Under the pieces are notes generated by a model. It made no database searches, was not told where the DNA came from, and saw nothing but the letters and a program-made list of their open reading frames with translations. Shown one piece after another: positions 1-59,465 of a DNA stretch of 64,000 bases. Made by a program: the position numbers and the translations under genes. The DNA is from Candidatus Omnitrophota bacterium (GTDB lineage: Bacteria; Omnitrophota; Gorgyraeia; 2-01-FULL-45-10): the NCBI GenBank assembly GCA_026387175.1, contig JAPLME010000010.1, forward strand, positions 62,096 through 126,095, given 5' to 3'. The stretch's first letter is position 1, and each line of letters starts with the position of its first letter.

Positions 1-3000
1 ATAGAATCCACTATGCGCTATGGTATCACTGATATAGTGACAGGTGCCCCCCTCGCGCAATATTTCGACGCACGTGGTAACGCGAAATACCAGATTACTA
101 CAACCTCAAACCAGTTAAATATTACGGGCGATATAGCAGAGGCGCGTTTCCAGATGGTCGATACGACTCAGCGTGAAAATATTAAATTCGACGACCGTGG
201 CAGGGTCACTTCATATAAAGAAACATCCATAGACGGCGCGACGAACGGCAAAGTTATCACAGAGTCTGTAAATACGATCACCGGCTATGATTATAAGAAT
301 AGGACCACGGCGATCGAGTCGCTCGCGCACAAACATGGCGAGGATGTTGCTACCGGTGAGATCCTTGACGAAACATCCTGGACGAAGCGGGAGATCCTCG
401 AGTATGACTCGCTCGACAGAGCAATAAAGTATGACGAACTTTCGAGAAGCACCACTACCGGAGCTTCTCTTATAAATGGAAAGCTCGATGGAGGCATCCT
501 TGCCACAAAGAATACGACCGGCGTGGAGTACTATTTTAACGATAGCATGAAATCATACTGCGAAGTAACCTCTGCGGATAATATCGATATGAAGACCGAG
601 ACATTACGTTATGACATGAAGTATACCTATCTGAATCAGCTCATCTCCGACACCGAAAAAGCCCATCAGCATGATATAAGAGCCGATCTTACAGTCATTG
701 TCGATATCACAGCCATTACCGAGAGAAGCGGCATGACCTACAATGCTGTGGGCCAGATGACGGAATTCCAGGTTAAGTCCTGGTCGACGGCGGCTACAGA
801 TAGCGTAAGCACCGTTAAGACGACTGGTATGACTTATAATCAGCTAGGACGCATGATTGACTCGACTTCAGATGAGACTACCGGGAATGTTGCCGGAGAG
901 GCGATCAGCCGTATCGAAAGCGCGCTCCAGGGCTTTGACATTCTCACTCTCGAAGAGAAGAACGCGAAACTCGATGAGATAGGCGGCGCTCTCGGCCTCA
1001 AAAAAGGTGATATCACAGCCCGCAAAGCTCTCATAGACATGGGCGTCGCAAACTTTATAACAAGACTTAAGTCTGTCGGGGCTTTTGTCCTGAACTGTGC
1101 CGCCGCCGCTCTCACTTATATACTGGGAGCGTTCGGTAAGGTCCAAGCGGCCTACGAGACCATAAAGAGCCTGATCCTTACTGATCTCCTTACGGGCGGT
1201 ATCAATCCGGCAAATCTCACCGGCGCGATCGAGACATCAATGTACGCCATTATAAAGACGGCCCAGAAGAATGGCCTTAAGTTAGCCGGTGGAGCTGTGG
1301 CTCTCGACAGCCTTATAGGGATTGTGAATACGGTTAATCCCGTAATAGGTGTATTTATGAAAGGCGCCGAGACACACTATGTAGCTATCATCTATATTAC
1401 GCAGACCGTTATCAGCTACGTAGAGTCAGGACAAGTAGTTACGGTCGAGCGAAGCGAATTTGTAAAGCAGTATCAGTATACGGGAAAAGTTATCGCTAAT
1501 GAGGATATGCTTCGCGCAGACGAAATCCTGAATAATGAGGAACAAATTAAAGCCATTCGGGCGACAAAGAGCGCGGTCGAAGAGATAAATCCATTCACTA
1601 CCATAAAGACAACGACCGTGAAGACCAATATCCAATATACCAATATACAGACGGGCCTGGCGACCACATGGCATGAATATACCACGAGCGATAGTTCACC
1701 CGATAAAGTAACCAATGCCGATGTCGAAGCGACCTATAACGACAAAGGCCAGATGCTCAGCTATCGTACGCGTATGACAGAGACGGGCATTAACGGCGAG
1801 CTTGGCAAGTTAGAGAGGTCTTACAGCTTCCTTAAGAACAATTTCAGTTACGATCAAGCAACGGGGCAGGCCTCGCAGTGGCAACAAACCACATATGCGG
1901 ACACTCAGTCACCGGATCTTGTGATAGATTCGACCGTTGAAGTTACTTATGACTCGCTGCTACACATGGCTACATATACTGAGCAGGGCCATAAGAAGAG
2001 TCTCACTGATGAAGCTATATATAACGAAGCTTATACGCTAAAAAAGACAGAGCTTGTCTACAATGCATTCGGCCAGGCAGTATCCTGGACCGAAAAATCG
2101 TCATCAGATCCAGCCTTTGATCCCGCCCTCAATAAAGTGACCACAACAAAGGTCGTTGTCGAATATGATGATCTTGGCCGGACAGCGAAGAAGACAGACA
2201 ACATTAGTGAAAATGGCCCTGGCCTTGACCATACATATACCATAGTAAGCGGGATAACGGGTTATGACGGCCTAGGCAGTGTAAAGCGTGTGACTAAGAC
2301 CACGACCGATGGCGATAAGATATCGATCGAGAGCGATACGGAAGATAAAGAATATGATAGCCAGGGCCGTCTTGAGTATTCAAGGACGGACGTAACCGAG
2401 AAGTCTAAGGATGGCATTAGCCTTAATCACAAATATGCAGTCGAAACTTTCATGAAGGACATTGCCGGTGTTACACAATACTACAATGACCTTGGCCAGA
2501 TCCTCAAAATGAAGCGGGTTACCATAGATGACGGCAAGATTACGACCGAGACTGACACAGAAAACAGGACATACAATTCGCTAGGGCAGTTTAAGTATTC
2601 AAAGGCTGCAATTAGAGAACAATCTAAAGATCTTGTCAGCCTTGACCATACCTATACACAAGAGATGTCGGCAAATGAGTATAATTTGCTCGGCCAGATC
2701 AGCATTATGATCCGTACCACCGTTGATGAAGGTAAGACGACTACCGAGATCGATAGAGCGAAAAGGACCTATACAGAGGCTGGCCAACTCAAAACGTCGG
2801 ATGTTGAAATCACGGAGAAAGGCGGCGCGCTTGATCATATGTATAGGACTTATACCGATATTCAATTATATGACGGCCTCGGCCAGGTTGCGCGCATGAC
2901 CCGCACCACGACCGATGACGAAAAGCAAACCGTAGAGGCTGATGACGCCGTTGTCGTAAGGACCTATGACTCGCAGGGCCGTCTTAAGCATTCGAAGACC

Positions 3001-6000
3001 GCCATCACTGAACAATCGATAGAAGGCAGCGAGCTTAACCTTAACCACACCTACACGGTCGAGACTTCCATTAATACCTATAACCCTCTCGGGCAGACCC
3101 TCAGGATGTCTCATATCACTGTGGATGACAACAAGACTACGACAGAGACCGATACAGCTAATAGAACATATAATGTAAAGGGCCAGCTCGAGACTTCCGC
3201 CACTCGGATAAATGAAACGGGAGGCGTTTTAAACCATACCTATGACACAAAGATGACTATTAACTCTTACAATGATATCGGTCAGATAGAGAATATGACC
3301 CGCACCACGACCGATGACGAAAAGCAAACCGTAGAGGCCGATGATGCCAAAGTTGTAAGGGCCTATGACTCGCATGGCCGTCTTGAACATTCGAAGACCG
3401 CCATCACTGAACAATCGATAGAAGGCAGCGAGCTTAACCTTAACCACACCTACACGGTCGAGACTTCCGTTAATGCCTATAACCCTCTCGGGCAGACCCT
3501 CAGGATGTCTCGTGTTACCGTTGAATATTTAAAGGCTGCGGATGGAAATACTATAGTTGGGAAGACCACGACTGATACTGACGTATCTGATAGAACATAT
3601 AATGTGAAGGGCCAGCTTGAGACTTCCGCCAGCCGGATAAACGAGAAGGGCACAGGCCTGGATCATACTTACTATACAAGCATGAGAGTTGACGATTACG
3701 ATCTGCTTGGTCAAGTCGCGCGCATGACCCGCACCACGACCGACGATGAAAAGACTACCGTAGAGACTGATATAGCACCAAGAGCCTATGACTCGCAGGG
3801 CCGTCTTGAGCATTCGAAGACCGCCATCACTGAACAATCAATAGAAGGCAGCGAGCTTAACCTTAACCACACCTACACGGTCGAGACTTCCGTCAATACC
3901 TATAACCCTCTCGGACAGAACCTCAGGGTGTCTCATGTCACTGTTGATAATGGAAAGACCACGACCGAGACAGATACATCTGACAGGACATACGATATAT
4001 TGGGCCAGCTTAAGACTTCCACAAGCCTGATAGAGGAAAAAGGCACAGGCCTGTACCATATCTATAATATGGGCACGACTATCCTATCATACAATACACT
4101 GGGTCAGACCTTGGAGATGATACGCACCACAATAGAAGAGGACAAGACCACTACTGAGACGGATAAGGCGGAGAGGACTTATAATTCACTCGGGCAACTT
4201 CTGACTTCAGAAACTGATGTGCGCGAATATGGCCCGGGCCTTGACCGTACTTACACAATGAAGACAAGGGAAATATTATATAACGCTATTGGCCAGGCAA
4301 AGCGCATGTCTCGCACCATAGAAGATGGCGGTAAGACCACGACAGAAGAGGATACGGCAGATAGGAGATATGATGACCAGGGGCTTCTCAGCGCCACAAA
4401 CATCCACTACGTTGAGCAGGATATAGGGACTAAGGGCCTTGTGTTCAACCATTCTTATGATACCCAGACAATGATGGAGTGCAATGCGCTTGAGCAGGTT
4501 AAAAAGATGAAGAAAATTACGACAGACAATGGCAAGGTAACCACGGAAGAGGATGTTAGTGAAAGGAAGTATAAACTCGATGGCAAGTTAGAAAGCTCAG
4601 TTACCCAAATCCATGAAGAAGGCACCGTAGACGGGGTCCAGGTTCTGGAAAACGATTATAGGCTGACGACCGATGTTAAGGAGTATAATCTGCTCGGCCA
4701 GGTTAAGCGGATGGTCCGTATTACAAATGATGGATACAGAGTAGTAACTGAGACCGACAATAGTGGCAGGCTCTATGACACAAGTGGCAGGCTCTCAAAG
4801 TCGAATGTGAATAACCATGAAGTCGGCAGCTTGACGAAGTTGGATATGGGCAACAATGAAGTCGGCGGGCTTAACGGAACAGTTGTTCTGGACCATGCAT
4901 ACGACTTGATTACCGAGATCACAAAGTATAACGATCTCGACCAGACCCTGCAGATGACGCGCACGACGGTTGATGGCAAGAAGACCACGGTTGAGCTGGA
5001 CATCGAAAAAGATAGAACTTACGACATTCTAGGCCGGGTACTTGACACGAAAATTGCCATCACCGAACAGTCAGATGATAAACTTAGTCTTAATCATACC
5101 TACACCGTAGAGGCATCTATAACAGTTTACGACATGATGGGTCGGGTGCTTCAGTCGACGCGCACTACTATTGACGGCATTGACGGCGGCAAAAAAACCA
5201 TAGAAATCGATACGAAGGATCGGGCCTATGATATTGATAGCAGGCTCATATATTCAATGATCAAGTGCAGAGATACGAATAAGGCCACAGAAACTGCCGC
5301 CGAAGGCGCCCTCCTCGACCACACATATACGTTAACGACTAATATAAATAAGGAAAACGGCTATAACAACCTTGGCCAGCTTCTCCTTATGGACCGCAAG
5401 ACCGTTGATTACGTGATTGTTAATGGCAAGCTTGTAGAAGGCAAGACTACAACCGAGACTGATATCTCCACCTCGCCCAGAACCTATAACGTGCGCGGCC
5501 AGCTCAAGACCTCTGCTACCAGTATCAATGAATCGGGAGGGGCCTTGCCCGGTAACGTGCTTGATCATACATATACTGTGTCAGTGGAAGCAGCGAAGTA
5601 TGACGATTTCGGCCAAGTTCTTCGGATGACCCGCACGACTATCGACTACGGCCAACTTACTACCGCGATTGATATCAACGCTGGCAAGGTCACGACCGAG
5701 GTTGATACGGCTGACAGAACTTATGATTCAGCGGGCCAGCTCACATATTCAAAGGCAAGGATTACGGAAACTTCCGTAACCGGGATGGCCCTTAATCATT
5801 CATCCTTCCAGGAGAAGACGGTTTATGAGTACAACTCTCTTGGCCAGGCGACGAAATATCGCGACATATCAACCGAGCTTCTCGCTGATGGCGTGACTAC
5901 AGGCGTTGTGACCACTTCCAATACCAGTGATGTGCAATACAATAGGCAGGGTCAGATGGCCAGCATGACCAGCGCTTCATCCGCTTCATCAGGCCCCGAT

Positions 6001-9000: not shown

Positions 9001-12000
9001 GGCGTCATATATAATTCCCAAAACCAGATCGCCGGATATACGGATAAGATCACGACAGACGGCGATACAAAGATCGAAACTAAGACTATTTCCGGGATGA
9101 AGTATTCGCGCACCGGACGGTCGGCCGGAAGCGTTACAAAGACGCGTGAGACCGGATCCACCGTGTTGGACGGCTATACATACGCGCTTGATTCTACTAC
9201 GACTACCACCCAGACCGATCTTGTTTATAACAAACTGGGGCAGCTTACTAAATATACCAATGTGACGATCGCCGATGCCGCCCCTGAGCGTGCCACTACA
9301 CTATTCATGAAGAATATCAAGTATGACGTGACGGGCCGCATTATAGACTATGACCAGAGTACAGTTGAACGGGCCTCTAATACATATGACCTTAACGGCG
9401 ACGGGGTGCTTGATCAAGGCGATCTTGATGCCCTGACAGAGTATATGGTCAATAAGGCGAAGGCAGATCCGGGGTATGGATATTGCCGCATCGATATCAA
9501 TGGCGATAACAAGATCGATGCAATTGATATCGATATTATCAAGAGTGCGTTGAAACCCTTTAGCGAGGGCGGTTTTGATATGGATGGGAACGGCTATATC
9601 GACGATATGGATAAACAGATATTCAGTCAAAATCTGATGGCGATCATCTCCGAGCACGCTAATATTCAGGGTCCCATTTATGACCAAACCACTCTCGCTC
9701 GTGTTCCCGAAGATACTACGGGGAGGCAGTTCGTCTGTGATGGCTATCTTACCGGAACTAATTATAAGGTCTATGTCGATGGAATAGAGCAGGCCCAAAC
9801 CGGTGTATATACGGTGAGTGAAGCAGATGAAAAAACTACCATCACCTTTAATGCACGAATAAATACCAGCAGTACAGTAGCTCTTAGTCGGCTCATCCAT
9901 GATGCGCAGCCCGGATGGGATAAGCGCTTTGACTTGAATGGCGATAATAAGATCGACCTCTCCGACCTCGAAGAGGCGTCAAAGAGGATACTGGAAATTA
10001 AAACACTCCTTATAGAGAAGTCCAAGGATATAGATTACCTTGCTCTATCTACGAGCGGTAAATATGACCTGAGTTATTCCGGAGGCGGGTACGACCTTAA
10101 TAACGATGGTTATATAAGCGCTGATGATATTAAGACATTCTTCGCGACCGTTACTGTTGATGGCCAACAGATGCCGCTCTACCAGGCATGGCTGCAGGAT
10201 ATGATGGGGAGCGTTGTTCTCAAAAATCCCTCCGGGGGTACGACGGGTAATCAATTCGTCACGAACGGCTCTCTTTCAGGAAAGCTTTGCACTGTCTATG
10301 TCAACGGGGTTGCTCAGGTGCTGAATTCCATCGCATCTAACGGATATACAGTGCTTGAGACAGGGACAGGAAATAATATCGTCAGCACAATTACCTTAAA
10401 AGCAACTATAACTGATCCAAATGCGAAGGTAGAGCTCTCCGTGCGTAAGCTTGAGAATAGCGTTACCCTTGCCAGCGTTTCCGGAGATACCACCGGAAAG
10501 CAGTTTACCCTAGACGGCTCTCTTGCGGGAAGGCTTTACACGGTCTTTGTCGATGGGACAGCTCAGGTTCTGAACAGCGGATATACGGTGAGCGAAATGA
10601 CGGACAGCACTACACATGCTGTTACCACCACGATCACCTTCACTACTGCGATACCCATCGGCAAAACAGTGAAGCTCTCCCAATGGGTGACCACGCCTGA
10701 CAATATCGCGACGGCTAACCTGAAGTCAAATCTCCTACCGCTCTACGTTAACACGGTAAAGGATGGCAAGACGGATGAATTAATGGTTGAAAACCCGTAC
10801 CTTGAAAGCCTTGCTGCCCAGATTAATAAAGTCATAGCGCAGTGTTTTAACATTAAAGCGACAGCACAAGGCACTCCTGGCACGTTTAACTTCTCCAGTT
10901 ACCTGTATTCATTAGCTAATGCTAAATATAACATCACGCTTGATAAGGTAATAGGTACCGGCGATGGATCGACCACGAGATTTGAGACCGGCCTTACGCT
11001 CGCAGATAAGAGCTATCAGATTTTTGTTAATGGTCAACTCAGTAAGTCGACCAGCTACACTGTGGATAGCGCTGGCGCTGTAACTTTCACTGCGGCTCCC
11101 GCCTCCGGCCAGGAGGTCAAGATATCGATTACACAGGTAAGGGAGAATAAAGATATAGGCCCCGGTAATGGGTCGACCAAGAAGTTTAATATCGGCTATC
11201 CGATCGTAGGCAAGACGGTCAATGTCTATGTGGATAGCGTGGTGAACGGCGTGGTAGTGAGCAGTGCGCTAATGGCTAACAACACCTATGACGTTGACCC
11301 GATTTTAGGTACCATTACTTTCAAAACAGGTACTCCGGCACCGCCAGCCAATACGAAAGTCAGGATAAAAGTGGACAATTATGACTGTTCCGTTGATGAC
11401 GCCGCCAAGACCATTACCTTTAACAATAATATTTCTACGTCTGGCATGGATGTCATGATCAAGATCAATAGCTCCGTAGGCACACTTTCCGCCCTGGATA
11501 TCATCCAGACTTTTGACAGCAATGGCAATAAAGTCCTCGATATAGCCGATGTTAATAAGCTATGGAACGACTGGAAGAAAGGAAATTTCGTATTACCTGG
11601 AGACCCTACTGATACTACGGGTGCGGGATTTAGTGGTATTTACGCCCTGGAGCTGGCAAAGTTCCTCGGCGGCGGGCAAGCTAATGGCGCTATCTCCGGG
11701 GTGCTCGATACATCCTACAGCTTTAAACAGGGAACCGCCGACTTTATGGCATTGCTCTCTCTGAGTTCTGGCTTATGGGCAGCGACGGACTATTTAGAAT
11801 TATTGAGCAGGTTCAAAGGCTTCACCAATATTGCCGTGTATGACAGTAATTCCGATAAACAGATCAGCGCAGTAAGGGATACTATTACGGGAAAAACAGC
11901 TGATGAGACCGCGTTTAGTAATCTTATACAGGATCTTCTGTATAAGAGCGGAGTAATAAAGAAAAGTAGCCTCGCCAGCGATGACCCGCTTCTTAATCTT

Positions 12001-15000
12001 AATGTCAATAATGACGACGTGATCAGTAAAGCCGACTGGGATGTTTTTGGCACCCTTATCGGCAAGTACAATAAGACCACGGACGGCCAGATCACTGCGG
12101 AAGACGCAACGGCTACTCTTATTTCTGTGGGAAGCGACGGCAAGAGTTTTGCGCTGCCCTCGAGTTACATGACGACATATTCACTGAAAGGGAAAACCTA
12201 TAAAGTCTTCAGCACTATAGGCGGCACATCGACAGAGATAAAATCAGGTTATACGCTTGACAGCACAGGCAGGATCATAACATTTGCTACAGCGCCTGGC
12301 GCAGGAACAACCATCACGATAGATTTCGATGATAAAGCGACTATCACTACCCTTCTTAGCAATTATGGAGCGGTAATTAAACCGAGTGATATAACCACAT
12401 ACCAGGACGCGATAAAGGTGGCGCTGCAAAATAGAGGATCTTTGGCGAGCGGTCAGACCGGATATCTGCTCGCTTACGATAGAAATAATGACGGCGTGAT
12501 CGATAAGTACGATATCAGCGCGAATGACAAGATCATTGATCAGCTTCTCACGTGGAATGGCGGCGCTGTTACAAACGATAAATTTGTTACCTGGGGACCG
12601 GTTACATCATCATCCGGCGTCTTCTCACAGCTTCATTGTAAAGGGTATGATATCGGCGCTGACGGCGTCATATTTATTGATCCAAAGAATTCATTGGACC
12701 CATCGGATCCATCTAGATATTACAGCATACCTGGCACTGACTATGAATTTACCTATGCCGATGATATCGCCTGGGCAAAGATCACTCAGGCCCATTTCGG
12801 AGACGCGACCCAGGCCGATAGGATCGAGAAATATATATATCTGAGTGAAATACCCGACTCATTTATCAGGAATAATCCCGCGTTTGTCAATCTGACCGAT
12901 ATAAACCAGCTTAATGTTTACCAGTACGGGACAAGCACCACAAAGATCATCACCCAGAAGGACATAGATCTTCTGAAGAAGGACTCATCAAAGAAGGCGT
13001 GGGGTGAAGCGCTTGAGAATTATTTAAACGGAGATACGAAAATAGGGGTTGGCAAGGATGGGAATTGTGTATTTGAATTCGATAAATCTTTGCTTGGATA
13101 CGCTCCTGATGGGAATAATCCTTATGAGATATACGTAAACGATACCAAAGTCACAAATTATACCGCAACCGTAGGCACCAGCACTGTAACCATAACCTTC
13201 ACCGCCGCACCGGCAAGCGATGCGGCAGTGAAGGTGAGGGTGCCCGGTACGGGACGCTTCCATCTGGGGATCATCCTGGAGGACGACGCCCAGTCGATGC
13301 GGTTCCTGGGCAAGGATTACATTACGTTGGGGTATCCGACACCATCGACCGGTTTCGGTCTAAATGAAATTGATAAATCGAGCGCCTGCACGATCGAAAC
13401 GTGGGTCGAATTCACGAATCTTAATACGGCCGGCGATCAGGTCATATTGAGCCAGGCAGATAACGGGAGTGGCCGTGCCATATGGCTAGGGTACAACAAT
13501 AATATAACTACGCCGTCATCCAGCAAGCTGAAGTTCTCTTTCCATGGTGTAACCGCTGAGCTTGATATGAAATTTATCCAGGGCGATTGGCATCATATTG
13601 CCGCGCAATATAACCCGAATGTCAATAGGGCCAGCGGCGAGGCCGGCGTGATCACGTTCTTTATAGATGGTGAGGTCTATGCGCCAAGCCGCTACCAAGT
13701 TGGCTCCCTGGTCCAATATGGAGGTTATCTCAATAAGAATATAATAGTGGGCGCCGATATCGTAGGCGGAGTGGCGACGAACGGATTTAAAGGGTCTATA
13801 GATGAGCTCGCCGTATACTCTTCAGGAGCGCTCACTGCCGCGGACATAAAGAGCCATATGGATAATAAGCGCAAGACGGATCCTTCAACAGGTATTGTCT
13901 CAGTTACGGATACGAGTATGCTGGCATACTATTCTTTCGATGACGGCTCTGTTCGTGACCAGACAGGGCATAGGAATGACGGGTCAATCGCCGTAGGTTC
14001 GACCACGGCCGGCGGGTTTGAGACAGATGTCTTCTGCACGCTGAACCAGAAGAAAGACAGGCTCCTGTTCGACAAAGATGGTGACGGTATTATAGCTATC
14101 TATAAGACATACGCCGGACCGACCGATACGGTCGGCACGTTCCTCGGCGCCCTCGATCTTGTCCCATCGTATGCGAAACTCATCGCTCCGAACTCCGGCG
14201 CTACTTTCATGGTGAGCCAAAAGATGCGGGATATCAATGGCAGATTAATCGACAATGTTCGCTGGGGTTCGGTCGCGCATTTAGACCTTAATGCGGATGG
14301 CTGCGTCTCTATCGATGATACAAAATTCAGAGGCGTTATGGAGAGCTCTGTAGCCAACTATGTCACGTTCACTTATCCCAGCGGCTCAGATATTTTCAGC
14401 GAGCTTTATAAGCATTATGACGCGAATGGCGACGGAATTCTGAGCGCTGTAGATGATGAAGCGGCTTTCTGGTCGAAGGCAAACCTTAACGATGTTAATT
14501 GGGGCGATCCGGAGTACCGCTGGCAAAGCGAGGATGTCGTTTCCCAGGCTGATATAAATACACTGAAAACATATATCTCTACTTATGGCAAGGTGACAAA
14601 GACTGGCGGGTCCTACCGGCTCAAGTATGATATTAATAAGGATGGTATCGTGGATGGTAATGACCTGACCAAGCTCGAGGAGCTTATCTCTACTTACTTT
14701 GATTACCAGACAGATACCGGCAGACAAAATATGAAATATAACGATCTCGGCCAGCTCATCGGTTACGAGGAAACCTCTACCTCCAGCACCGATTCTATCA
14801 CAACGACCACAAAGATGAAAGAGATGAAATATGATGTAAAGGGCAGGATGCTCACTTATATTGATGAGTCACATGAGGCTCTTAGTAAGATTACAGGCAC
14901 ATATACTGATGCCAATGACGTCAAGGTAACATACACAATAGGTAATCTGGCTTCATTGGATGAGTTTAAAAATGTTGTCGATGAAAATGGTATTACAAAT

Positions 15001-24000: not shown

Positions 24001-27000
24001 AGCAAGTATAATATTGTCGATGATTCCCTCCTTACGGATATGGACCAGAAATATCTTAAATATTACGAAGAGTTCCTTAATGCCCCGAAACAGAATTTCC
24101 TTAATATAAACAGCCTTTCGGAGGCCCAGGTGAACGCCCTGATCAATGATGTCGGAGTGGCTGAAACTATAAATCTTGCGAGAGACGGTACCGTGACGCA
24201 TGCCGATGCCGTCACGCCGGGTTCGACATATCTTATCAGCGGGTGGACAGGGGGAAATGTCACAGTTCCGGAAAGTATGATCGTTCAGTGGCGGGAAGAG
24301 TCGTGGTCGAATCCTCGATTGGGATGGCAACCCGAAGACCTGGATTATAATAAAGACGGTGTTATCAATGGCTCGGATGGTACCAGTTTTGCGGAGATTG
24401 GCACTATGGTTGCTGCCTTCCAAACCCTCTTCGGGTCCGGGGCAAAGCTAACCCCGGAGCTGAGTGCGGCATATCACGCCCTTGATACTAATGGGGATAA
24501 CAAGATCGATATTCTGGACAAAAAGCCTGCTTCGAATCCTGCTAATACCGCGTTCAATGCTTATATTGATGCCCTTTTGAAAGCGGACGGGGCGGTTTCG
24601 CAGGGAGATGCCGGGAGAAAATTCCTCTCCTATGTTAATCTAGTCACGGCGGCCAATATAACTAAGTGTCAAGACCGCATCGCCCAAGTAAACAGAGATT
24701 TAGAGGCAGCCGGGTCGATCAACAGGCTTACGCCCCTTACACCCAACGATATCCTTAGCGGGATAATGGCGAGCGGCCAGAGTTATCTCGACAATCTTGC
24801 GCTCGTCACGAAGGATAGCATAGATACATCTATGCGTACAATCTCCGCGGCCAAAACCATCGTTACGACACTTAATATGAGCGCGGATGATGTCCTTAAA
24901 AATATATTAACGGACGGCGGGAAGTTCCTCGGGAACCTCGCGCTTGCCACGCCGGCTAATATAAATAAACTCCAAGACCGCATCGGCACTGCAAACGGTG
25001 TATTAGATGCGACCAATCAAATCAAGGCTAATCTAGTTATGTCTGTGAAAGATATCTTTAATAAGATATTGACGGATGGCAAGCCGTTCCTCGATAACAT
25101 AGACCTTGTCATAGCAACTAATATAACTGCGTTTCAAGGCCTCATTACCACGATTAATAATGCATTGCCAACAGGGACAGATAAACTTACGACCCCCCGG
25201 AGCGCGAACCAGGTCTTAAACGATATACTAACCGGCGGTAAGCAGTTCATTGACAATATCAATATCACGGATGAGAGTAAGAAACTCTTTACGGCAGCCC
25301 GAATAACCGCAGCTCAAGTTTGCATTGCCAAAGCAAATGAGGGATTGGCGGCGACTGACCAGCAGCTTACGCCTCTTAAGCCGGATGATGTCCTTAACGG
25401 TATAATATCGTACGGTAAGAAGTTCATCGATAATATAGGTCTCGTCACAGCCGGCAATATAACCACGCCTCAAAACTGTATCAGGGCGGCTAATTTGACA
25501 TTAACCGCCAAGATTCAGGTCCTGACAGCGGATCAGATTTATAGCAGGATAATATCGGGCGGCCAATGGTTCCTGAGCAACATTGCGCTCGTAACGGCGG
25601 ACAATATAACAGCGGCGCAAAACACCATTACCAAAGCTAATTTAGGCCTTACACCCCCGACCGTAAGCCAGCTCTTTGACGGGATAATAGCGAGCGGTGA
25701 GCAGGGCTATGAATACGATGTCGATGGTAACGGTCAGGTCAACCTTCAGGACAAGCACACTGTCGAATATGACGATATTGTGAAGAGGATTAAAAATGGT
25801 AATGCTTCCTCAGGTGATTATGCAAGACAAGCTGTCCTTGATAGCATATTCAATGACTATATTATCGCCAAAGGCTCTGTTTCCCGCGGGGAAAAGTCTG
25901 ATGTAAGGCTGAGTGACGCTACGGTAAATTCTGCCCTGGCTGGAGACAGTAAATTCTTATATTCCCGCTCTACGGCGCCGGTATTTAAAGTCGAAGATAC
26001 CGCAAAAGATAAGAAGATCTACTTTAAGATAATCAACGGCCCCGTTATAAAAGAGACGGATCCCGCAATCACATTTAATATCTCAAAAGACGGCGCGGTA
26101 AATGACTTTATGATAGATGAAACGGATGGATGGACATACGTGAGAGAGATCTCGTCCGTAGCTGACCGGGTGCTCATCGATTATAGTAAGGGCGAGAGAG
26201 TACTTATCGACGATGTAGAACAAAAACCCGAAACATATAGAATTGATACCGATGAAACTACAGGAGCCAAGACTATTGTATTCCTGAATTCACCGGTACC
26301 CGAGGGCAAGTTGGTAACGATAAAAGAGATAAAGACCGAAGCGTCTCCATATGTAAACAGTGATACATCCGGCGTAGATCCGGTGACCAAATGCGTTTTT
26401 GACGGGCAGCTCATACCTCTATCCGGTCTTGCTAATGAATATGAGATAAAGGTGGACGGCGTGGTTCGCCCGCATTTTTCCACGACAGACCCGAAATACG
26501 AGAACTACACGGTCACATGGGACGCAAAGACCGGGTATACGACCGTTGTTTTAAAGATGATGGACAGGTCGATCACTCCGACGTATACCACTGACGGTAA
26601 TAATCCTTGGTGGTATGGGTTCCTGGGCAAGCAACTTACGCTCGGCAGAACTATAGGCAGCGCGACTATAGACTGTGCTTATGATCCTCTCAACACCTAC
26701 GTGATATATCAGGACGGCAAAGAGCTAAAGGCCTCGGACTATACCGCCTCATCCGCGCAAGGCGGGAAGACGTTGATAGTATTTACCAATTCTTTACCAG
26801 GCACCGCGATCTTAAAGGCAAAATCCCTGGAAGGTAATCCTGTCATTGTAGCAACATATGCCCGCGTTACTACACCAATTAGTCGTACTTCAACCGATAC
26901 CAATAGGACAAGATATGCTATGAATGGATTCCTCCGCTCCTACGATCCTCTCGTACCCACAGGCGAACCTGCGGGTGAGCTGAAATTGTCGAGCCTGTGG

Positions 27001-30000
27001 CGCCAAGGCATCTTTTACCTTGAGAATGGGTATAATGCAAATCTCGATAAGAATTCTGACGGGTTCATAGAGGTCGCGCCATATCTGACAACGACCGATA
27101 CGACGTCGAAGCTGAGCGGTCTCCTCGACCAATGCAATATCACCCTGGCCCAAGGGTCGAATCCTACGAAATTCTACGCTGACCGGAACAGTGACGGCTA
27201 TATAGATCAGGCAGATGTTAACGATCTGATCCAATCTAGTGATGAGAACCTGAAAGCATGGGGTAATGCTATTCTAGGTATCCTCAATAAGAATAGCGAC
27301 GTTAACAGTATAATTGACGACAATGAGAGACTATGGATTGCGGATCCGGCTCCCAGTGAGGCCGCTCAAAAGGACGCCGCTATGATCCGCAGCTATCTCC
27401 TTACGCCGATGCATATACCCGGCACGATCATTGTGGATAAGGGGTTTGATTATATCGACCAGATGGATATTAATATACTTAAAGACACTTCGACAGAAGA
27501 TGTTGACTGTGTGACGAAAAAAGAATGGGCTAAGACTATCAAAAATTACCTTGCCAATAATAATAAGCGCGATCAGGGTATTCTCTATTGGCAGAGTGAT
27601 TATTATTCCAGCCATATTCTTCCGGATATGGATGGTAACGGTGTTGTAAATAATGCCGATATAACGGTCGTTGTGAAAGATGCCCAAGGCCACGAGACAC
27701 GGGAAAATAAGTCCGACATTTTGAAGGGATGGCTGAACGGCGATGTGCCCCAGGGAGATTACGAGCATATCATAATGCCCGGCGATGCAGGATGGGACTC
27801 TAGGTACGATCTCAATAATGACGGCATATTAAGCGGAGCAGACCTGGAAGTACTCGCAAGAAATCTAACCCTGCCCCAGGATATTGTCACTGAAGCAAAT
27901 AAGACATTGAGTGACGACAACAAGCTTTCGGATCTGACCACGTCCCAGGTTCTTAACGGCATAAAAGCGAATGGCCAGGGCTATTTCACCAATGTCAGGC
28001 TCGTCACGGCGGCTAATATCACCACGGTTCAAGCCCACCTCAATGAGGTGAACAATTTATTGGCGGATGGTAGCAAGTTTACGCGCGCTACTGAAAACCA
28101 GGTCATGACCGCAAATCAGGTCCTCGATCAGATAATATCAGGCGGCCAGAAATTCCTCGACAATATCCTGCTTGTCACAAAGGATAGTATAGAGAGTTCT
28201 CAAGCGCATCTCAATGATGTGAACAGTCAATTGAAGGGGGTTAAGTTTACGCTCACCGAGGGCCAGGTCATGACCGCGGATCAGGTCCTTAACGGTACAA
28301 TAATGAACGGCCAGACGTTCCTGAGCAATATTATGCTTGTCACAAAGGATCGTATAGTCGATTATCAGACTTCGACCAAGGCGATAAACGATGGGTTGGA
28401 TTCAGGCAATCAACTTACGTCCTTTACCCCCGACGAGATCCTTAGCGGGATAGTAGCAAACGGGCTGGTGTATTTCACCAATATCAATCTCGTCACAGTA
28501 GATAATATAACCACGTCTCAGGCCCATCTCAATGAGGTGAACAATTCATTGCCGAACGGTAACAAGTTTACACGCGCTACTGAAGACCAGGTCATGACCG
28601 CGGACCAGGTTCGTGAAGGTATAATAATGGACGGCCAGAAGTTCCTCGATAACATCAAAGATCTCGTCACGAAGGAGAATATAACCAAGTCTCAAAACTA
28701 CATCGTGGAAGCAAACAAGACATTATCGGATGGTAACCAGCTTACGCCACTGACCGCGGACCAGGTCCTTAACGGTATAATAGGGGGCGGCCAGAAGTTC
28801 CTGGACAACATCAGTTCCACACAGGCTGTTTTGGATGAATTTGTTCCTCACGGATTTGTCGCTCGTTTTAACGAATACATGATAAATAACGCGGCGCTTG
28901 TCGATGATCCGAAAGTGAGCACTGATGCTTATAGCGTATTGCTTGCCACTCATCCCGGAATTACAGATATCAATCTCGACCATAAAATAGACCATTTTGA
29001 TCTCGATACCTATTCTCTTAATTCGGAGACGCGTACGGAACGTGATCATGTGACCTATGAGACTTCGGGCAGGCTCTTTGGATACCGCGATACTGTTACA
29101 TCCCCTTCAACCCCATACCAGGTGACTGAGAGCATCGTATCGGACATCTATTATAACGAGAAGGGCCAGATGGAAGGATATAATCAACTGGATAATAGTT
29201 CGACCTTCCTCGAGTTGAACGGCAAAGACAGCGATTATGCCATTACGACCGAGAATGGGACTATGCCGGATCTCAATATAAGGAATGGGTACCTGAATTT
29301 TGATTTCAACGCCGCCACAGGAAAGTCATTCGAAGTGGGGGTGAGTATAGAAGTTGATAAATATATAGGGACATCCTTGACTCAGGAAGAGTACACTATC
29401 CATTTCGCTCTTGGTGAAAATACCGGCGAGATTAGCTACGATTCCAATACGCCATTCGAGGCTACCTATAATCTCGGCGCCGAATCAGATCTCTGCGACC
29501 GTAAATGGCATTCGGCCCTTCCCTTAAATCTGAGCCTTTATAGGATAATTGACCAGATAGCCAGTAAAAATGGCAGTCCTGCCGGCGCCCGCTATAAGCT
29601 TAACCATGTAAAAGCCATAACGCTTAAAGGCGAAGATGTCCAATTTAAAAATATATCGCTTTCGGCGGATAGCCTTCTCACCGATATAAAACCGGTTTCA
29701 GTCAAAAACTCGCAATGGAATAATGTTATTAAGACTGATCTCGGTACCTTCAATGCGCCCTACGAGAGCGAGCTTACCATAAAGGATATCAAGCGTAGAA
29801 ACTTCAAATATAATGAGCTGATGCAGTCCACCGGCTACCAGGATACGGTCTGGAGTTCCGATAACCCGGCTATCGAGACCGTAAGGACCATTTCCGCCAA
29901 CGTCTATAATGGGCTCGGCCAGATCGTAAGCTCTGACGAGAAGACCGAGACGCGCCAGAACTCGCTTACGGTGAGCTCTCCCGGCACATCGCTTTACGGT

Positions 30001-33000
30001 ATCGTCAGTAAGAAGGACAACATCTTATATAAAGACGCGAACCTGAAGTATTACGCGGATTCTATGTCCGCGGGAGTGCCGCTCGGGTTCCTCTCTTTTG
30101 AGATAGACGCCAAGAAGATGGAAGACCTGCGCGATCCTAGCCACAGTTTTAATGTCAACGCCCCGTCCGAGGATTTCGTCATTTATGTCGCGGCGAAGGT
30201 AAAAGTCGATGAAATAAACGGTAAGACAGAAGACGTCCTTGTAGCGGTGCATATTACCGAAGGTACAGAGGGGTGGAGAGATCCTTTAAACGAAGAGAAG
30301 ACAGACGAAGCGATAGGTGTGAAAAAGGTATACGACTATTATCTCTTAAACCATGTGAATAGCGATGGAGTCATTACCGACGCAAAGGATACCGGCCTCA
30401 GCATCTATGATTTTGATGCCAAAGAGAATGACAAAGATAACAATGAAGTGAAGCGCATAGCTCTCGCCAAGGAAAATGGGACCCTTGCCATAGACAGATG
30501 GTTCCGCATAGAAAGTATCAATCTCGAAACGATATGTGCCGGTAATATTCTTTCAGATAGCCACAACACACCATATGTCTTCGACCACGTTAAGTGGTTC
30601 TACATACGCGGCGGCAGTTATACGCTGCGCAACATGGTAGTTGCGGCGGATAAGTACAAATCAAATGCGGAGAAGATCTCTCTGGCGAGCTCTGACTGGC
30701 AGGTCTATGCCAGCAAAGCCACCATTATCAGTAATGATGATGCAAGCGGTTCTTCACCGGAGTCCCTCATACTCGATATCAGCACCGATTCGAGCCAGGA
30801 TACGTCAATCTCCCCCACTGACGCGGCCGGTAATACCCAGAACCTTAATTACACCGGCAAGAACTACCTGGTATTTGATTACAAAAATGACACAGAGGTT
30901 CTGGATACGCGCGACACCTTCTATATAGCCCTGTATGTTACAGGCAAGAATGGCAAGAATTACTCCCTCTATTACTATACTAATAAAATCGGTTCTCCGG
31001 TCTCAAAATATGAAACCATAAGCGGCGGATGGGCAAATTTCGGCATGGCTGAAGCATGCAAGAGCGATGTTGATTACCAGAATAAATTCAACACCGAATA
31101 TGTAGCCAAAACAGAAACAACTCCGGAAAAGGTGGGGGATGGTTTTACGACCGTTGTGAGAAATATCGATCAGGACCTGCTCGACCAGTTCGGCACCGGA
31201 CTGCAGAAGATAGGGTCGCTCTCTATGGTTACCAGGGGCGGCAAGTATCAGATCAGGAGCCTGAGATTTACCGCTTTAACCACTGCAAGTCCTACAGCGG
31301 ACTCTTGCGGCAACATTAAATACACTGACATACAGGGCAAAGAAACCAAGGTCCAGCGCGTGGCCCTTGATAAAAAACGGTGGAAAGCGACCAAGGGCGA
31401 TATATCGCTTGCGAGCGCCGGCAAGGTGACAACATCCCAGAAATGGGATATGAAGTACAATACGCAAGGCCAGCTCCTGTCTTATAAAGACAAATCTTCC
31501 AGTTCGACCGCGAAGATCATCTCTATGAATGGCGCTAAGGATGCCACTGTCTCTGTAACCGCCTCGCCATCAGAACCAGTATATCCATGGGGTGTCACAT
31601 CAGGAACAGCCGAGTTCACGCTGCTTATCGGAAATATGTATGACGACACCGAAAAGAATAATAATATTGTTATCTACTTCGGAGACTCTAAGGTTGGCTA
31701 TCAACTTACTATAAGGGCGACAGATGACCTGGGAGCCGACGCTTGGGCATGGCAGCTTGCCAAGACGGACGCGGAAGGAAACACTATGGGCCAGAGTGAA
31801 ACTAACAGTGGCCTGTGCGTTACCGGCAAGGAAGCGGATGGCTGCAAGCCGCTCAAAAAAGGCGGTTTCTATAAATTCAGAGTGGAGATATCGTCAGGCT
31901 ATGTCAGGTTTAAAGAGATATATACCAATACCGTAATAGAGCTGAAAGATCCCGATTCGCACTGGGACTGCGGCGCTCCGATCCTGAGGGTATCTGCCCG
32001 GAGCATGGACGCATCTATCGGCGCCATGTCATTTAAAGACTGGAGGACCGACGCTGACTATACTTATAACAATAACTCGCGCATCACGCCTTCCACCCCA
32101 TCGAATACGAGCGTAAGCATAACCGATCTGAGCAACCAGACCACCAAAGTCGATGCCATGTCGTACAATGAGAACGGGCTTATTCTTTCTCAGCGCGTTC
32201 GAGGCGTCGGCGCGAGCTCGCTCTACAAATTTACATATATAGATACTGATAAAGCCGCCATTATTGAGGTCAGTAACAGCACATCCTTTACTGTCCTGGA
32301 TGGGAATAATAATAAGATGTATTCCGACAGCTGGGCTGAGACGGGATCATCGGACACAGATCCGTCAAAACTGAAGAGGGACGCGGGCGCGGACAGCGTT
32401 AACTTCATGAGAGAGGTAAGCGGCTGGGACAAGAAACCGTCGTACATGGCCTATAACAATATCAAGTATGAGACGGTTAATGGGGAAGAGGGTGGGAAGG
32501 TAATAGGCATCGACTATATAGTCGACCATAAAGGGTACAGGTATGAGTTTGACAGCGAAGGGAGGCCGTCAGCGCTTTATGCAAAGGATACTTCTTTCCT
32601 TGCGGATAAAGTCGCCCACGTAACTTATTCATATGATCCCGACCTTGTCGTCAATATATACAGGGATAAATATGACGGCGATCACCATACCTCATTGCTT
32701 AAATTCAAGGCTCATTATGATGCGCACGGCACTCTGATAGCTCTCACGGGTACCGATGTCGGCGAGAACGAGAACTGTTATTCGGACTATAAAGCCGAAA
32801 TAGTTTATGATGAGGTGACCGGCGAGATCCTTACCGCCAACATTATGGAGCTCAGCACTACAGGCGATAATAAGACGGTCTTCAGCCAGTCGCAGGAGAT
32901 TTTCTATAACGGGACGCTTGTCTCGTTCACCGGGACCAGCTGGACGCTGGGTTCATCCCTTTCAAACACTGACGGCAATGTATCACTGGATACCCTTTCC

Positions 33001-36000: not shown

Positions 36001-39000
36001 CCGGCAGACCAGTATAAAGGCGAAGCGCTAAAACAGCAACAGTTGTCGGAAGGTAAGGGAGTCTGGGACGCTAAGGGCACAGGAATGGGCAACGCGCAAC
36101 TTAATGTACAGCAGATGAGCATGATAGACGCCATGATGTCTTTAGGATTATTTGGTGATTCAGCGAGTAATAGGGTTACCGCAGCGACATTCGGCAAGCT
36201 CACGGGTGACCAGACGATTAAAGATACGATAAGCGCGACACTTGGCGATAACGCTGTTGTGACCGATGTAAAGCTGACGACCGAGAACGGTAAGACCGTT
36301 ATAACATTTGCCGTGGACGCCAAGACCGTGACCGGCCAGGCAAAGAACCTTATGGAATCCGTCCTTAAGGCGGACTCTAACGCGAAGATCGAGGGACAGA
36401 TAGATATCCTTACCGGACAAGTCTCATTCGTGACAAAGATCGAGTCCGGCAGTATGGCGGTCCTCCTGGCTAACCTGGTCCAGAACAATGTCCTGAGCCA
36501 GGTGGCGGTCGCCAATATGACAGCTTCCGCGGAGCAAATGTGCAATGGAGATATATTTAGCGATGATGGCAAGCTCGACTTCAAGAAAGCCGCCGCAGGA
36601 GGCAGTGTCACCGTTAGACTTACCGCAAACGGCCAGGGCAGCTTCTCCTTTGATATGAACGCCAATAATCTGAACAACGAAATGAAGACTGTCGCCGGCG
36701 TTCTCGGTATTGTCGACTCTAATAATAACGTCAAAGTCGTTATCGATGCCGGATCCGGACAGATGTTCCTTGCGATGGGAAAATTGACTTCCACCCAGGC
36801 AGATAGCCTTATCGCGTTTGCCAATGATAACGGATGCAAGACATTCACCCAGCAGCTTGGCGGCCTGGGTGGCTGTGAAATCCTCGGTGGGCAGATAGGC
36901 CTGAACGCGGACGGCAACTTTGTCGGCAAGGTCCAGATCAATATTCGCGCCGGGTCGAGCACGGCCTCATTCTCACTGGGCAATGACGTGGCCGGCCTTA
37001 ACGATCTCGCGAGTATCTTTGGAAGCAATGTGCTCGCTACGATGACCGTTGAGGAAGGCGCCCAGCGGCCGACCCTTGACTCTCTGTCGTTCGGCGCGGC
37101 AAACCTTGACGATATCCTTCTCAAGCTTAACCAGATGCCGGATCTCCAGAAGGTCCTGGCCCCAGCTCTCACAAAACTCAAAGAGGCATCGGACCAGAAC
37201 CTTGTCAACCTGAACAATATAGTGGTGAAGACCGACTTTGGCATCGACAAGACGGGTGATGTGAGGGCGCTTGTCAGCTTCGTATTCAGCTCTATTACCA
37301 CGATAGACATTAAGAATATCCAGATCGCGTTCAAGGTCGATCTCTCGAAGGTCTCGATTGAGAATGGCCTGACTATAGCGACCCTGAACGGCAAGGACTT
37401 CTTCGTAGTTACCGCTGAGACCAAGGTCAATATGGCGGCCGCGCCGGTGAGTGAGATCGCGAGGGTTATCAATTCATACGCTGCCGTCCCGGAGACCGAG
37501 AGGCCTGCCGCTATGGATAAGATAAAAGAGTTAGTCGGGGAGGCCGTTGATACGAATGCGTTTTATGGAGACCGCGCTAGCGCCATAGGCGCCATTAAAG
37601 AACTGAGCGATGCCTCGAGCGCTATCCTGAACGGCCTTAAGAACGGTAATCTGACCATGCCTGAAAGATCAGAGATGGCGGATCTGCTTGAGGGCTGCCT
37701 CGATAAGGCGCGCGAACTGCTCGCATCCGACACGATCCCGTTCGATAAAGAGTTTGCGGGCCTCGCGCTAGGGATGCTGGTCAATGCCAATATCAATCTC
37801 GTCGCTCAAATAGGAAGATTCAGCAAAGATTTCGATCTCTTTGCCTGGGGCCAGATAGAAGCGTCTCTGGATGTGGTCATGAACCTTCTTTCCGTAGATA
37901 ACGTCAATAAGCTGCTGGCCGAGGGCGGCAAGGACTTCGTAATTGCCGCATTCAAGGCGCTTGGCGATATGGTCGTCAACCTTATTCAGAATTTTGCAAA
38001 TCTTGAGAAGAATGGTTTAGGCGAAAAGGCGATGAACAAGATAGCTGAGGCGTTTAACACCATAGAGGCATTCCTCACGATCGATAACGTCGTCTCTCTT
38101 CTCGACAAGGGTTTTGTGGATGTCCTTCGCGCCGCAGTCGAAACTCTGGTCAAAATGACCACAGCCCTTATAGCTAACTTTGGTAATATAAAGGATAAGG
38201 CCCTACAAGCGCAGGCCATGGGAATCATTAAAGGTGCGTTCAGTACGCTCTGTGACCAGAAGACAGGCATCCTGGCGATCGACAATGTCCTGAATATCCT
38301 TGATAAGCGGGATGGCGCTATGTTCCTCACTACAGCAGTTAATGCTCTGGGCAGCATGACCAAAGCGCTCATCGAGAACTTCTCGACATTTGCCAAGAAT
38401 GGTTTCGGCAAAGAAGCTATGGATATCATCACAACCTCGTTTAATACGCTCTGTGACCAGAAGATAGGAATTCTCGCCGTGGATAACGCGATGAAGATCC
38501 TGGCTAAGGTCGGCGGTGCGGTATTCCTTATCGCGGCTGTCAATAATCTCACGATGATGGCCGTAGCCATGATAGAGAACTTCGGTGTCTTCGCCAGTAA
38601 GGGTTTCGCGGCAGAAGCCATGAATGTGGTAGAGCTTGCTGTTACTACGGTCTCGAACCTTCTCCAGACGGATGTCATAACCGAAATGCTTAAGAAAGGC
38701 GGAGATTCGGTAAATGTCATTACCGCGGCACTCGCATCACTGACTACTATAACTGCCAAGCTCGCAGAGAACATAGCTAACTTTGGCGGTGAAAATAAGG
38801 AAGCGGCATTAAAGCTTGTACTGAAAGCGCTCGGCACATTGGTCAAGCTGGGGTCTTTTGAGGCCATCAATAATATTCTTGACTCAGCGAGGGCCGGCGG
38901 CGATGTCAAGAAGGGCGAAGCTGTGATAGCGACAGCCGCGGTAGATATCGCCTTACTGTCTAACGCGCTCTTGAATGGTAAAGGTATCGATGCCCTGACG

Positions 39001-57861: not shown

Positions 57862-58062
57862 CTATAGTTTTACTACGTTTGCCGCCTGTTCGCCTTTAGG
57901 GCCCTGAGTAACATCGAACTCTACATCCTGGCCTTCTTTTAAAGATTTAAAGCCATCCCCCTGGATAACGCTGTGATGCACGAATACATCCTTACCGTTT
58001 TCCGGCGTGATGAAACCGTATCCCTTAGCGTCGTTGAACCATTTTACTTTACCTTTTACCAT
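57862..58062 (-). CDS. cspA: Cold-shock protein, CspA family (66 aa)
   Basis: [16 protein letters not shown] (RNP1) and VFVHHSVI (RNP2-like) are present. An AGGAGG Shine-Dalgarno sequence (58072-58077 on the minus strand) lies 9 nt upstream of the ATG. Confidence 0.95.
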
Positions 58063-58229: not shown

Positions 58230-59465
58230 ATGATAAAGATATCCCGCATAAAAATACCGCTGGCAATATTATTGATATCGGCATTTATTCTCTCCGGATG
58301 CTCGGAAGGAAGGCGTGCCGTTCCTCAGGCCCTTGCCGATAAAGCGGAAGTTCCGGGAATGCCCGGAGTCCGCTCCAATTGTGATTCTACTAACCCTTTA
58401 ATGGAAAAGAGCCTTCTCGAATCATTTAAATACGAATATCCCACCTATTTCCCGTCAGACGCTGATGGAGTGAAAACATACTCTTCGCTCGCCATATCCG
58501 GAGGCGCCGATAATGGCGCTTATGGCGCCGGAGTATTAAAGGGCTGGTCGGAAGCAGGTTCCCGGCCCGTCTTTAAAGTTGTCACGGGGGTCAGCACCGG
58601 GGCACTCATTGCCCCCTATGCTTTCTTAGGCAGTGAATACGATAAAGAAGTAGAGACTCTATTTACGAATATATCCACTGATGACATAGTAAAACGTAAA
58701 GGCTTCTTAAGCGGGGTCTTCGGAAACTCACTCACAAGCTCGGAACCTCTGGCAAGACTGATATCGGCCTCTGTGAACGATCGTCTATTGAGCGACATTG
58801 CCCGTGAATATGGCCGCGGCAGGCGCCTCTTTGTCGGCACGGTGAATCTGGATGCCTGCAAGCTGATCATATGGGATATGGGAGCGATCGCGGTGCTGGC
58901 ATCGCGCGGAAATCTTCAGGCCAGGGAACTCTTTAAGAAAGTGCTGCTTGCCTCAGCGTCTATACCCGTCACATTTTCCCCGGTACTGATAGACGTGGAA
59001 GCGGACGGGAAGATGTATAAGGAGATGCATGTCGACGGCGGCACGCTCTCCCAGGTCTTCTTTATATACGGCCTGGCGCATAACCTGCGGAAAATGGCCG
59101 GGAAGGCCGGTGTAGATATCTCCAAGGTAAAGGCGAAACTTTACGTGATCCGTAATGGCAAAGTAACACCCGGATATAAGGAGATGAAGAGCTGGCTGGG
59201 CGCGATAGCTGAAAGGTCCATCGATGCCATGACCGGAGCGCAGACTGTAGGCGATATCTACAGGCTATATGCCATCTCCGTGGAAAAGGGCAATGATTTC
59301 AACCTCGCGTATATACCGGACAATTATGTTTCGGGCAAGAAGGAATTTTTTGATAAGTACGAAATGCGCCGGCTCTTCGAGCGCGGTTATCAGGACGCCC
59401 TTAAAGGGTATTCCTGGCATAAAACCCCTCCGGGATGGGAGAAGACATTGGCCGGGGAAGAATGA
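58230..59465 (+). CDS. Patatin-like phospholipase, predicted lipoprotein (411 aa)
   Basis: Lipobox ILSGC after an N-terminal hydrophobic region. Gly-rich oxyanion motif SGGADNGAYGAG. Nucleophile elbow GVSTG (GxSxG). Catalytic Asp in HVDGGT. Confidence 0.85.
   Translation: MIKISRIKIPLAILLISAFILSGCSEGRRAVPQALADKAEVPGMPGVRSNCDSTNPLMEKSLLESFKYEYPTYFPSDADGVKTYSSLAISGGADNGAYGAGVLKGWSEAGSRPVFKVVTGVSTGALIAPYAFLGSEYDKEVETLFTNISTDDIVKRKGFLSGVFGNSLTSSEPLARLISASVNDRLLSDIAREYGRGRRLFVGTVNLDACKLIIWDMGAIAVLASRGNLQARELFKKVLLASASIPVTFSPVLIDVEADGKMYKEMHVDGGTLSQVFFIYGLAHNLRKMAGKAGVDISKVKAKLYVIRNGKVTPGYKEMKSWLGAIAERSIDAMTGAQTVGDIYRLYAISVEKGNDFNLAYIPDNYVSGKKEFFDKYEMRRLFERGYQDALKGYSWHKTPPGWEKTLAGEE

Follow-up and report, generated by a model that had tools for sequence, protein, structure and literature searches.

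Dockerin-type giant proteins have been reported from Omnitrophota as attachment proteins in which the N-terminal region lacks transmembrane segments and the anchors are C-terminal; their proposed function is attachment to host or prey cells (West-Roberts et al. 2023, bioRxiv 10.1101/2023.11.21.568195). The present work deals with two arrays of short tandem repeats, called arrays A and B, that lie in a giant protein of 18,743 amino acids (aa) from a Candidatus Omnitrophota bacterium. The open reading frame (ORF) coding for this protein (13-56244, + strand, frame 1, as given by the ORF list and its translation) contains both arrays and takes up 88% of the window, which is the whole stretch of 64,000 nucleotides that was analysed (GenBank assembly GCA_026387175.1, contig JAPLME010000010.1, positions 62,096 to 126,095 of the forward strand).

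These dockerin-type proteins share several characteristics with the host protein of the arrays. It also comes from Omnitrophota and exceeds 10,000 aa; it carries dockerin/EF-hand motifs, an F5_F8_type_C domain and an RHS-like repeat region; and, according to a hydropathy scan, its transmembrane segments are confined to the C-terminal part, the long N-terminal part having none. It differs from them in that TSP3 repeats, C39 peptidase and SecA-like domains were not detected by Pfam anywhere in the giant protein. The passages of the preprint that were consulted describe β-helix tubules and CBM35/dockerin ladders and contain no mention of the present helical repeat.

Helical repeats are well known from other proteins, and three groups offer themselves for comparison. 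The FIVAR/GA-type repeats of Staphylococcus aureus Ebh are rod-forming helical modules found in giant Gram-positive surface proteins. Arrays A and B resemble them in being short tandem helical modules of a very large, presumably surface-located protein from which an elongated rod is thought to result, and one of the weak matches of the repeat profile (P0003, a protein of 3,948 aa with helical repeats) can be noted beside this likeness. However, neither array matches PF07554 and its relatives in Pfam at E ≤ 10, and the Omnitrophota unit, of about 53 aa, is rich in asparagine, glutamine and threonine (N/Q/T) and is predicted to combine a kinked helix with a single long one.

Alpha-solenoids, such as HEAT, TPR and TALE repeats and designed helical repeats, have two antiparallel helices per unit. 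The arrays would resemble them in that the predicted unit is a helix-turn-helix, the units follow each other head-to-tail and the modelled orientation between neighbours is fixed. They match no HEAT, TPR, ARM, ANK, TALE or Sel1 family (Pfam, E ≤ 10; NCBIfam, E ≤ 1), Foldseek retrieves nothing with the two-unit model at E ≤ 0.001, and their linkers (6-19 residues) are longer than those of alpha-solenoids. In trimeric autotransporter adhesins, the stalk is a coiled coil whose core includes polar (Asn) layers. The last helix of the array unit, with a stripe of residues spaced by three or four positions that includes a conserved Gln and a conserved Asn, recalls these stalks, but the host protein has no YadA_anchor domain by Pfam and the units are predicted to fold back within a single chain. 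Finally, the units differ from type I dockerins and EF-hands in lacking the 12-residue calcium-binding loop.

One repeat unit in two arrays

Twelve units were cut using the core [ILV]L.G[IT]I..G..FL..I and aligned, and a profile hidden Markov model (HMM) built from them was searched against the whole giant protein. Two clusters of matches were found and nothing else of note. Array A (24613-25710, + strand, aa 8201-8566) is composed of six full units, scoring 64-77 bits each, with a partial unit at each end. It begins with the partial unit A0 (24613-24723), continues through A1 (24724-24864), A2 (24865-25026), A3 (25027-25185), A4 (25186-25362), where seven residues are inserted ahead of the last helix, A5 (25363-25509) and A6 (25510-25650), and finishes with the partial unit A7 (25651-25710), which contains the first helix only and is followed by a calcium-loop motif. 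Array B (27850-28842, + strand, aa 9280-9610) is composed of five full units (72-80 bits) flanked, here too, by two partial ones. The first of these, B0 (27850-27921), contains the last helix only and is preceded by a dockerin-like loop-helix; it is followed by B1 (27922-28092), B2 (28093-28257), B3 (28258-28410), B4 (28411-28581), B5 (28582-28737) and the partial unit B6 (28738-28842).

The unit measures 47-59 aa (47-59 aa for the full units of array A and 51-57 aa for those of array B). Its consensus, ..LTADQVLnGIi.gGQkFLDNI.LVT..NIT..Q..I..AN..L, is followed by a variable linker. Positions G18, N24, L27 and I33 are invariant, and I14, T29, Q37, N44 and L47 are nearly so. The conserved core hydrophobic residues are V10, L11, I14, F21, L22, I25, L27, I33, I40 and L47, whereas G18, N24 and T29 are conserved at turn or cap positions. 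A first-pass annotation of the same DNA had placed two repeat arrays at 24600-25680 and 27900-28810, with units of about 47-58 aa and the motif LTP..VLNGII..GQKFLDNI.LVT..NIT..Q; the limits, unit length and consensus given here agree closely with that description.

Both arrays are built from one and the same unit, and this similarity is real and well beyond chance, since an HMM made from either array alone finds every unit of the other and shuffled sequence yields no matches. The HMM of array A detects all units of array B (31-56 bits, E 1e-12 to 1e-19), and that of array B detects all units of array A (21-53 bits). These single-array HMMs found no further copy in the remaining ~18,000 residues of the giant protein, and the array A HMM gave zero matches in 20 shuffled copies of it. 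The two arrays align colinearly with 42% identity, and protein identity between individual units ranges from 23 to 63%.

The arrays are rich in N, Q and T, with N reaching about 11% in array B vs 6% for the protein overall. Charged residues are scarce in them, and so are aromatic ones (Y 1.2-1.4%, W 0-0.3%). N-x-S/T sequons are enriched two to three times, with 1.9 and 2.7 per 100 aa in the arrays vs 0.87 overall, because the N-I-T triplet is conserved at the start of the last helix.

No relatives of the repeat were detected. Pfam (E ≤ 10), NCBIfam (E ≤ 1) and PHROGs gave nothing significant for the two arrays or for the segments surrounding them, and 5.8 billion proteins, when queried with aa 8181-9630 (1,450 aa) in a word-indexed search, gave no match. 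Pattern scans for the repeat locus in GTDB species genomes, IMG/VR and JGI metagenomes (the latter scanned twice) found no encoded relative. When 1.84 billion representatives were searched exhaustively with HMMER, the unit profile gave three marginal matches, P0001-P0003 (E 7.5e-6 to 6.7e-4): a mucin-like protein from a eukaryote, a trimeric autotransporter of the YadA type (P0002) and the helical-repeat protein P0003. All three match only the LVT..NIT..Q..I..AN..L motif of the last helix and were judged not homologous. The P0002 match (E 2.6e-4) is confined to this motif of about 17 residues. For P0003, a profile-profile comparison with hhalign gave a probability of 0.3% that its repeats are related; Pfam calls no FIVAR in this protein, which has no relative in the PDB either.

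Other candidates were also set aside. The search of PDB sequences with the unit profile yielded only matches with E > 1, to heptad repeats of paramyxovirus fusion proteins. The phage family phrog_10142, of 60 positions and unknown function, gave weak summed matches at 24553-25752 (E 6e-4) and 27802-28902 (E 2e-4), but no single stretch passed and none of 50,697 phage records matched array B by tblastn, so that this link was dropped. With respect to structure, Foldseek comparison of the AlphaFold2 model described below with PDB and BFVD gave nothing at the threshold mentioned above. As far as the searched databases show, the repeat is thus a new sequence family without a close structural match: a lineage-specific, tandem, predicted helical module of about 53 residues. 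Since short-read assemblies usually break giant genes into pieces, relatives may exist outside these collections.

Predicted fold and possible roles of the arrays

Because there are no homologues from which an alignment could be built, paralogous units were used as the AlphaFold2 alignment. The query was A5-A6 (aa 8451-8552) and the alignment consisted of six non-overlapping two-unit windows, checked to be in register; overlapping multi-unit windows were unsuited as a pseudo-alignment, MAFFT having staggered them by identity. The resulting model is all-helical, with a mean predicted local distance difference test score (pLDDT) of 88.9 and a predicted template modelling score (pTM) of 0.72, and four of the five models fall at pLDDT 85-89. 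The alpha-helical nature proposed for the units by the first-pass annotation is therefore supported by the AlphaFold check, in which the linker was also placed with confidence.

In the model, an 11-residue helix and a 7-residue one, set apart by a kink at the invariant Gly, are followed by the four-residue turn xLVT and a helix of 17 residues in each unit. In the second unit of A5-A6 the first two helices merge into one of 19 residues. The third helix would pack back on the first two, and linkers of 6-19 residues would connect successive units. From the alignment and the DSSP string, T29, the threonine of xLVT, probably caps the last helix, and N24 probably ends the second one. The residues I33, Q37, I40, N44 and L47 of the last helix form one stripe, since they are spaced 4-3-4-3. 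The nine-residue linker between A5 and A6 sits in 10-residue blocks of mean pLDDT 85-90; together with the pTM value, this argues for neighbouring units being held in a fixed orientation in the predicted structure rather than as beads on a flexible string.

Taking these data together, the arrays are best read as a helical rod or spacer, specific to the lineage, that lies within a dockerin-type giant protein in a part that is likely extracellular, an account to which we give about half of our confidence. The 6-8 helical modules of an array would make up an elongated and fairly stiff rod, and the rods would set the spacing and orientation between the flanking calcium-binding and β-domain segments of a very long adhesion-type protein. 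Both would sit in the long N-terminal part of a membrane-anchored protein, a part that has no transmembrane-like segments and is probably extracellular. The stiff-rod reading is based on the conservation pattern, a confident all-helical model in which the linker is well ordered, purifying selection on the units (see below) and the lack of a catalytic or binding signature: no enzymatic or binding family was matched by the arrays in Pfam, NCBIfam, PHROGs or PDB sequences. The conservation of core hydrophobic residues, of the Gly at the kink and of the caps is more in keeping with a structural repeat than with a catalytic or ligand-specific site, as judged from the aligned units.

Several points weigh against the rod. 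The AlphaFold2 alignment is unusual, with only six two-unit windows, all from the same protein; one of the five models of A5-A6 failed (pLDDT 46.6), and a single-sequence AlphaFold2 prediction of array B was uninformative (pLDDT 36). The predicted stack may be a rod, a solenoid or a zig-zag. The topology of the giant protein comes from a hydropathy scan alone, and the spacer function is drawn only from anatomy and context. In addition, the conserved polar residues N24, Q37 and N44 and the N-I-T triplet could equally mark a binding surface.

This last point leads to the alternative that survives best, in which the arrays would be ligand-binding helical solenoids of stacked units. Their polar Asn/Gln/Thr surface, repeated from unit to unit, would recognise glycan chains, surface-layer proteins or other repetitive targets carried by another cell. 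The N/Q/T-rich composition, poor in charged and aromatic residues, is in line with such a surface, as is the fact that several invariant or nearly invariant positions are polar (N24, Q37, N44, T29). The host protein also contains lectin-type domains (Laminin_G_3, F5_F8_type_C), and giant proteins of this type have been proposed to attach to host or prey surfaces. However, the arrays match no binding repeat family, the aromatic residues typical of glycan binding are scarce (see the Y and W contents above), and the conserved polar residues stand at cap or turn positions or in the core-facing stripe of the last helix, suggesting a structural role. A binding solenoid is accordingly considered unlikely, though it should be kept in mind ahead of the other alternatives.

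The arrays might also work as a mechanical spring, with units that unfold and refold singly under tension, like spectrin or talin rods, buffering the force on a cell-cell tether. Many small, similar helical modules in series within some 11,600 aa outside the membrane would suit such a device, and the calcium-binding loops at both ends of each array could modulate its stiffness. With only 6-8 units per array, however, the gain in extension would be small compared with the whole protein, and nothing separates a spring from a passive spacer. We therefore regard this proposal as improbable.

Equally doubtful is a role in pairing or oligomerisation, in which the heptad-like stripe of the last helix (I33, Q37, I40, N44, L47), with polar residues at core positions like those of trimeric adhesin stalks, would zip array A to array B, or several chains to each other, while the 713-aa segment between the arrays loops out. 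The similar numbers of units (six and five, each with two partial ones) and the colinear alignment of the arrays are compatible with pairing, as are the weak matches to the YadA-type stalk of P0002 and to the viral fusion heptad repeat, both restricted to the last-helix motif. These matches are marginal, though (E 2.6e-4 in the protein library and E > 1 in PDB), and the AlphaFold2 monomer folds each unit on itself confidently, a partner not being needed. In one form of this proposal, which we find just as hard to favour, the unit would be a hitherto unseen kind of helical repeat, and its conserved Gln/Asn ladder would zip the arrays within one chain or across chains, giving a stalk that presents the 713-aa calcium-binding segment as its head. 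If this were true, the arrays would be a self-assembly device instead of a passive spacer, and the N-I-T triplet could in addition act as a repeated N-glycosylation site.

Coming back to the rod or spacer, the finding is a modest one, helical spacer repeats in giant adhesin-like proteins being a familiar theme. Omnitrophota giant proteins are mostly unannotated (in this one, 9,000 consecutive residues have no Pfam match), and a cleanly defined helical module, with its exact limits and a fold predicted with confidence, makes it easier to annotate such proteins and to build a family profile. Fragments of about 100-370 aa are small and expressible, which suits them to structural and mechanical tests of how very long cell-surface proteins are put together.

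Age of the duplication in array B

Array B contains a three-unit super-repeat (27918-28656, + strand) with a period of 489 nt (163 aa). Positions 27918-28167 and 28407-28656 are 75% identical across 250 nt, and the best-kept core, 28030-28110 vs 28519-28599, is identical at 72 of its 81 positions (89%) with an offset of 489 nt. The first-pass annotation had reported near-identical duplicates at about 480 nt, pairing 28030-28110 with 28510-28590. At an offset of 480 nt the identity is only 20%, and neither the distance nor the degree of similarity could be upheld. Block B1-B3 is 71% identical to block B4-B6 at the DNA level, and the closest pair of units, B1/B4, shows 63% protein and 75% DNA identity, DNA identity between units ranging from 42 to 75%.

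These copies are old. For B1/B4, the youngest pair, synonymous divergence (dS) is 0.6-0.7, falling to about 0.43 in the best-kept 30 codons, and the ratio of nonsynonymous to synonymous divergence (dN/dS) is 0.2-0.4. The longest exact DNA repeat within 24600-28850 is 19 nt, and Tandem Repeats Finder reported nothing in either array; no exact repeat is long enough to favour slippage or recombination. The super-repeat thus consists of old copies under purifying selection, without sign of ongoing turnover. The earlier suggestion of fresh duplications and continuing turnover does not hold, and the freshness that would have raised the interest of array B is not supported. Purifying selection on old copies argues for a maintained structural role.

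The age of the array repeats agrees with a survey of Omnitrophota giant genes, in which nucleotide tandems are mostly dissolved while the repeat architecture persists at the protein level, being mostly the product of ancient duplication and not of recent expansion (bioRxiv 10.64898/2026.06.07.730766).

An assembly artefact, through collapsed or expanded copies (a condition raised for the duplicates by the first-pass annotation), or a chance similarity can be practically discarded as the source of the repeats. Nothing was found in favour of either, the unit copies are 43-75% identical in DNA with no long exact repeat that could have confused an assembler, the reading frame is open for 18,743 codons, substitutions are biased toward synonymous ones, and the cross-array E-values given above have no counterpart in shuffled sequence.

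Flanks, host protein and genome context

The inter-array segment (25711-27849, + strand, 713 aa) is free of unit copies. A motif scan located EF-hand/dockerin-like DxDxDG loops in it, at 25717-25752, 27046-27075, 27181-27216, 27625-27660 and 27808-27843 (+ strand). A short way upstream of array A there are two calcium-loop-like motifs, DLDYNKDGVINGSD (24337-24378) and DTNGDNKIDILD (24484-24519), both on the + strand. The DxDxDG...D loop is absent from the units and present only in the flanks (aa 8109, 8158, 8569, 9012, 9057, 9205 and 9266). Calcium loops of the EF-hand/dockerin-like type bracket each array, and the terminal partial units pass straight into loop-helix motifs, through which the flanks of arrays A and B align weakly with one another. 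Pfam gave only weak EF-hand and Dockerin_1 matches in the inter-array segment, and the word-indexed search found no database homologue of its 713 aa. Domains similar to a recurring β-type domain of about 90 aa (motif GDGSTxxF...V.VDG....YTV.....ITF) are also present between the arrays; this domain recurs at ~9600-12000 (aa ~3200-4000), for instance at 10960-10992, and has a weak, sub-cut-off Pfam match to DUF2460 at aa 3619-3705.

In the giant protein as a whole, the Pfam scan recognised RHS_repeat, Laminin_G_3, F5_F8_type_C and Dockerin_1 domains in the N-terminal half. Dockerin_1 appears above the cut-off twice, F5_F8_type_C scores 30.4 bits vs a cut-off of 28.2, and eight strict calcium-loop motifs were counted by motif scan. 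YD/RHS-like segments (aa 7869-7929 and aa 9663-9779) enclose both arrays. The most repetitive part of the protein in a self-comparison map is found at ~1800-6000 (aa ~600-2000), where dense internal repeats with a recurring Y-N-x-L-G-Q motif have a YD/RHS-type look.

A crude hydropathy scan indicated eight transmembrane-like segments, all from aa 11,626 onward and none earlier, so that both arrays precede the first of them. The description of the arrays as a helical segment in an otherwise β-rich protein stands for the recognised N-terminal domains (RHS/YD, Laminin_G_3, F5/8 type C), which are β folds, but not for the last ~7,000 aa, which contain the transmembrane-like segments and repeats that look helical by eye. 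Among the latter are repeats of about 75 aa at ~37800-39000 (aa ~12600-13000), for instance at 38284-38325 (..NVLNILDKRDGAMFLTTAVNALGSMTKALIENF..); they are unrelated to the array units and adjoin transmembrane-like segments. Pfam gave no match in the last 9,000 aa, three extra pieces of the C-terminal half included. Near the C-terminus, where Pfam gives no match, the motif WLVHSHPVMPADEG (55276-55317, aa 18422-18435) resembles the HxHP..D metal-binding motif of JAB/MPN-type domains.

The only database relative found next to the arrays is P0004 (KJ994_01030), a partial protein of 822 aa from a Candidatus Omnitrophica metagenome-assembled genome (MAG). It is 65% identical to the giant protein over aa 9753-10567 (29278-31722), beginning 143 aa after array B, and its location on a contig of 2.5 kb illustrates how fragmented giant genes are in public assemblies.

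Downstream of the giant gene, the HyfB-like gene at 61690-63513 shares 68-80% identity with genes of about 30 Candidatus Omnitrophota MAGs, against at most 46% with genes from elsewhere, a pattern that indicates the origin of the window in Omnitrophota. Through this gene 62 related loci were found, and neither the giant gene nor the arrays have a homologue in any of them. The same organism was detected in four sequencing runs, only as Logan contigs of 1.7-4.4 kb around the downstream patatin gene. Two patatin-like phospholipase paralogues (PF01734) are arranged in tandem downstream of the giant gene (58230-59465 and 59739-60956, + strand), and near them lie a gene for a cold-shock protein (57862-58062, - strand) and one for an ArsR-type regulator.

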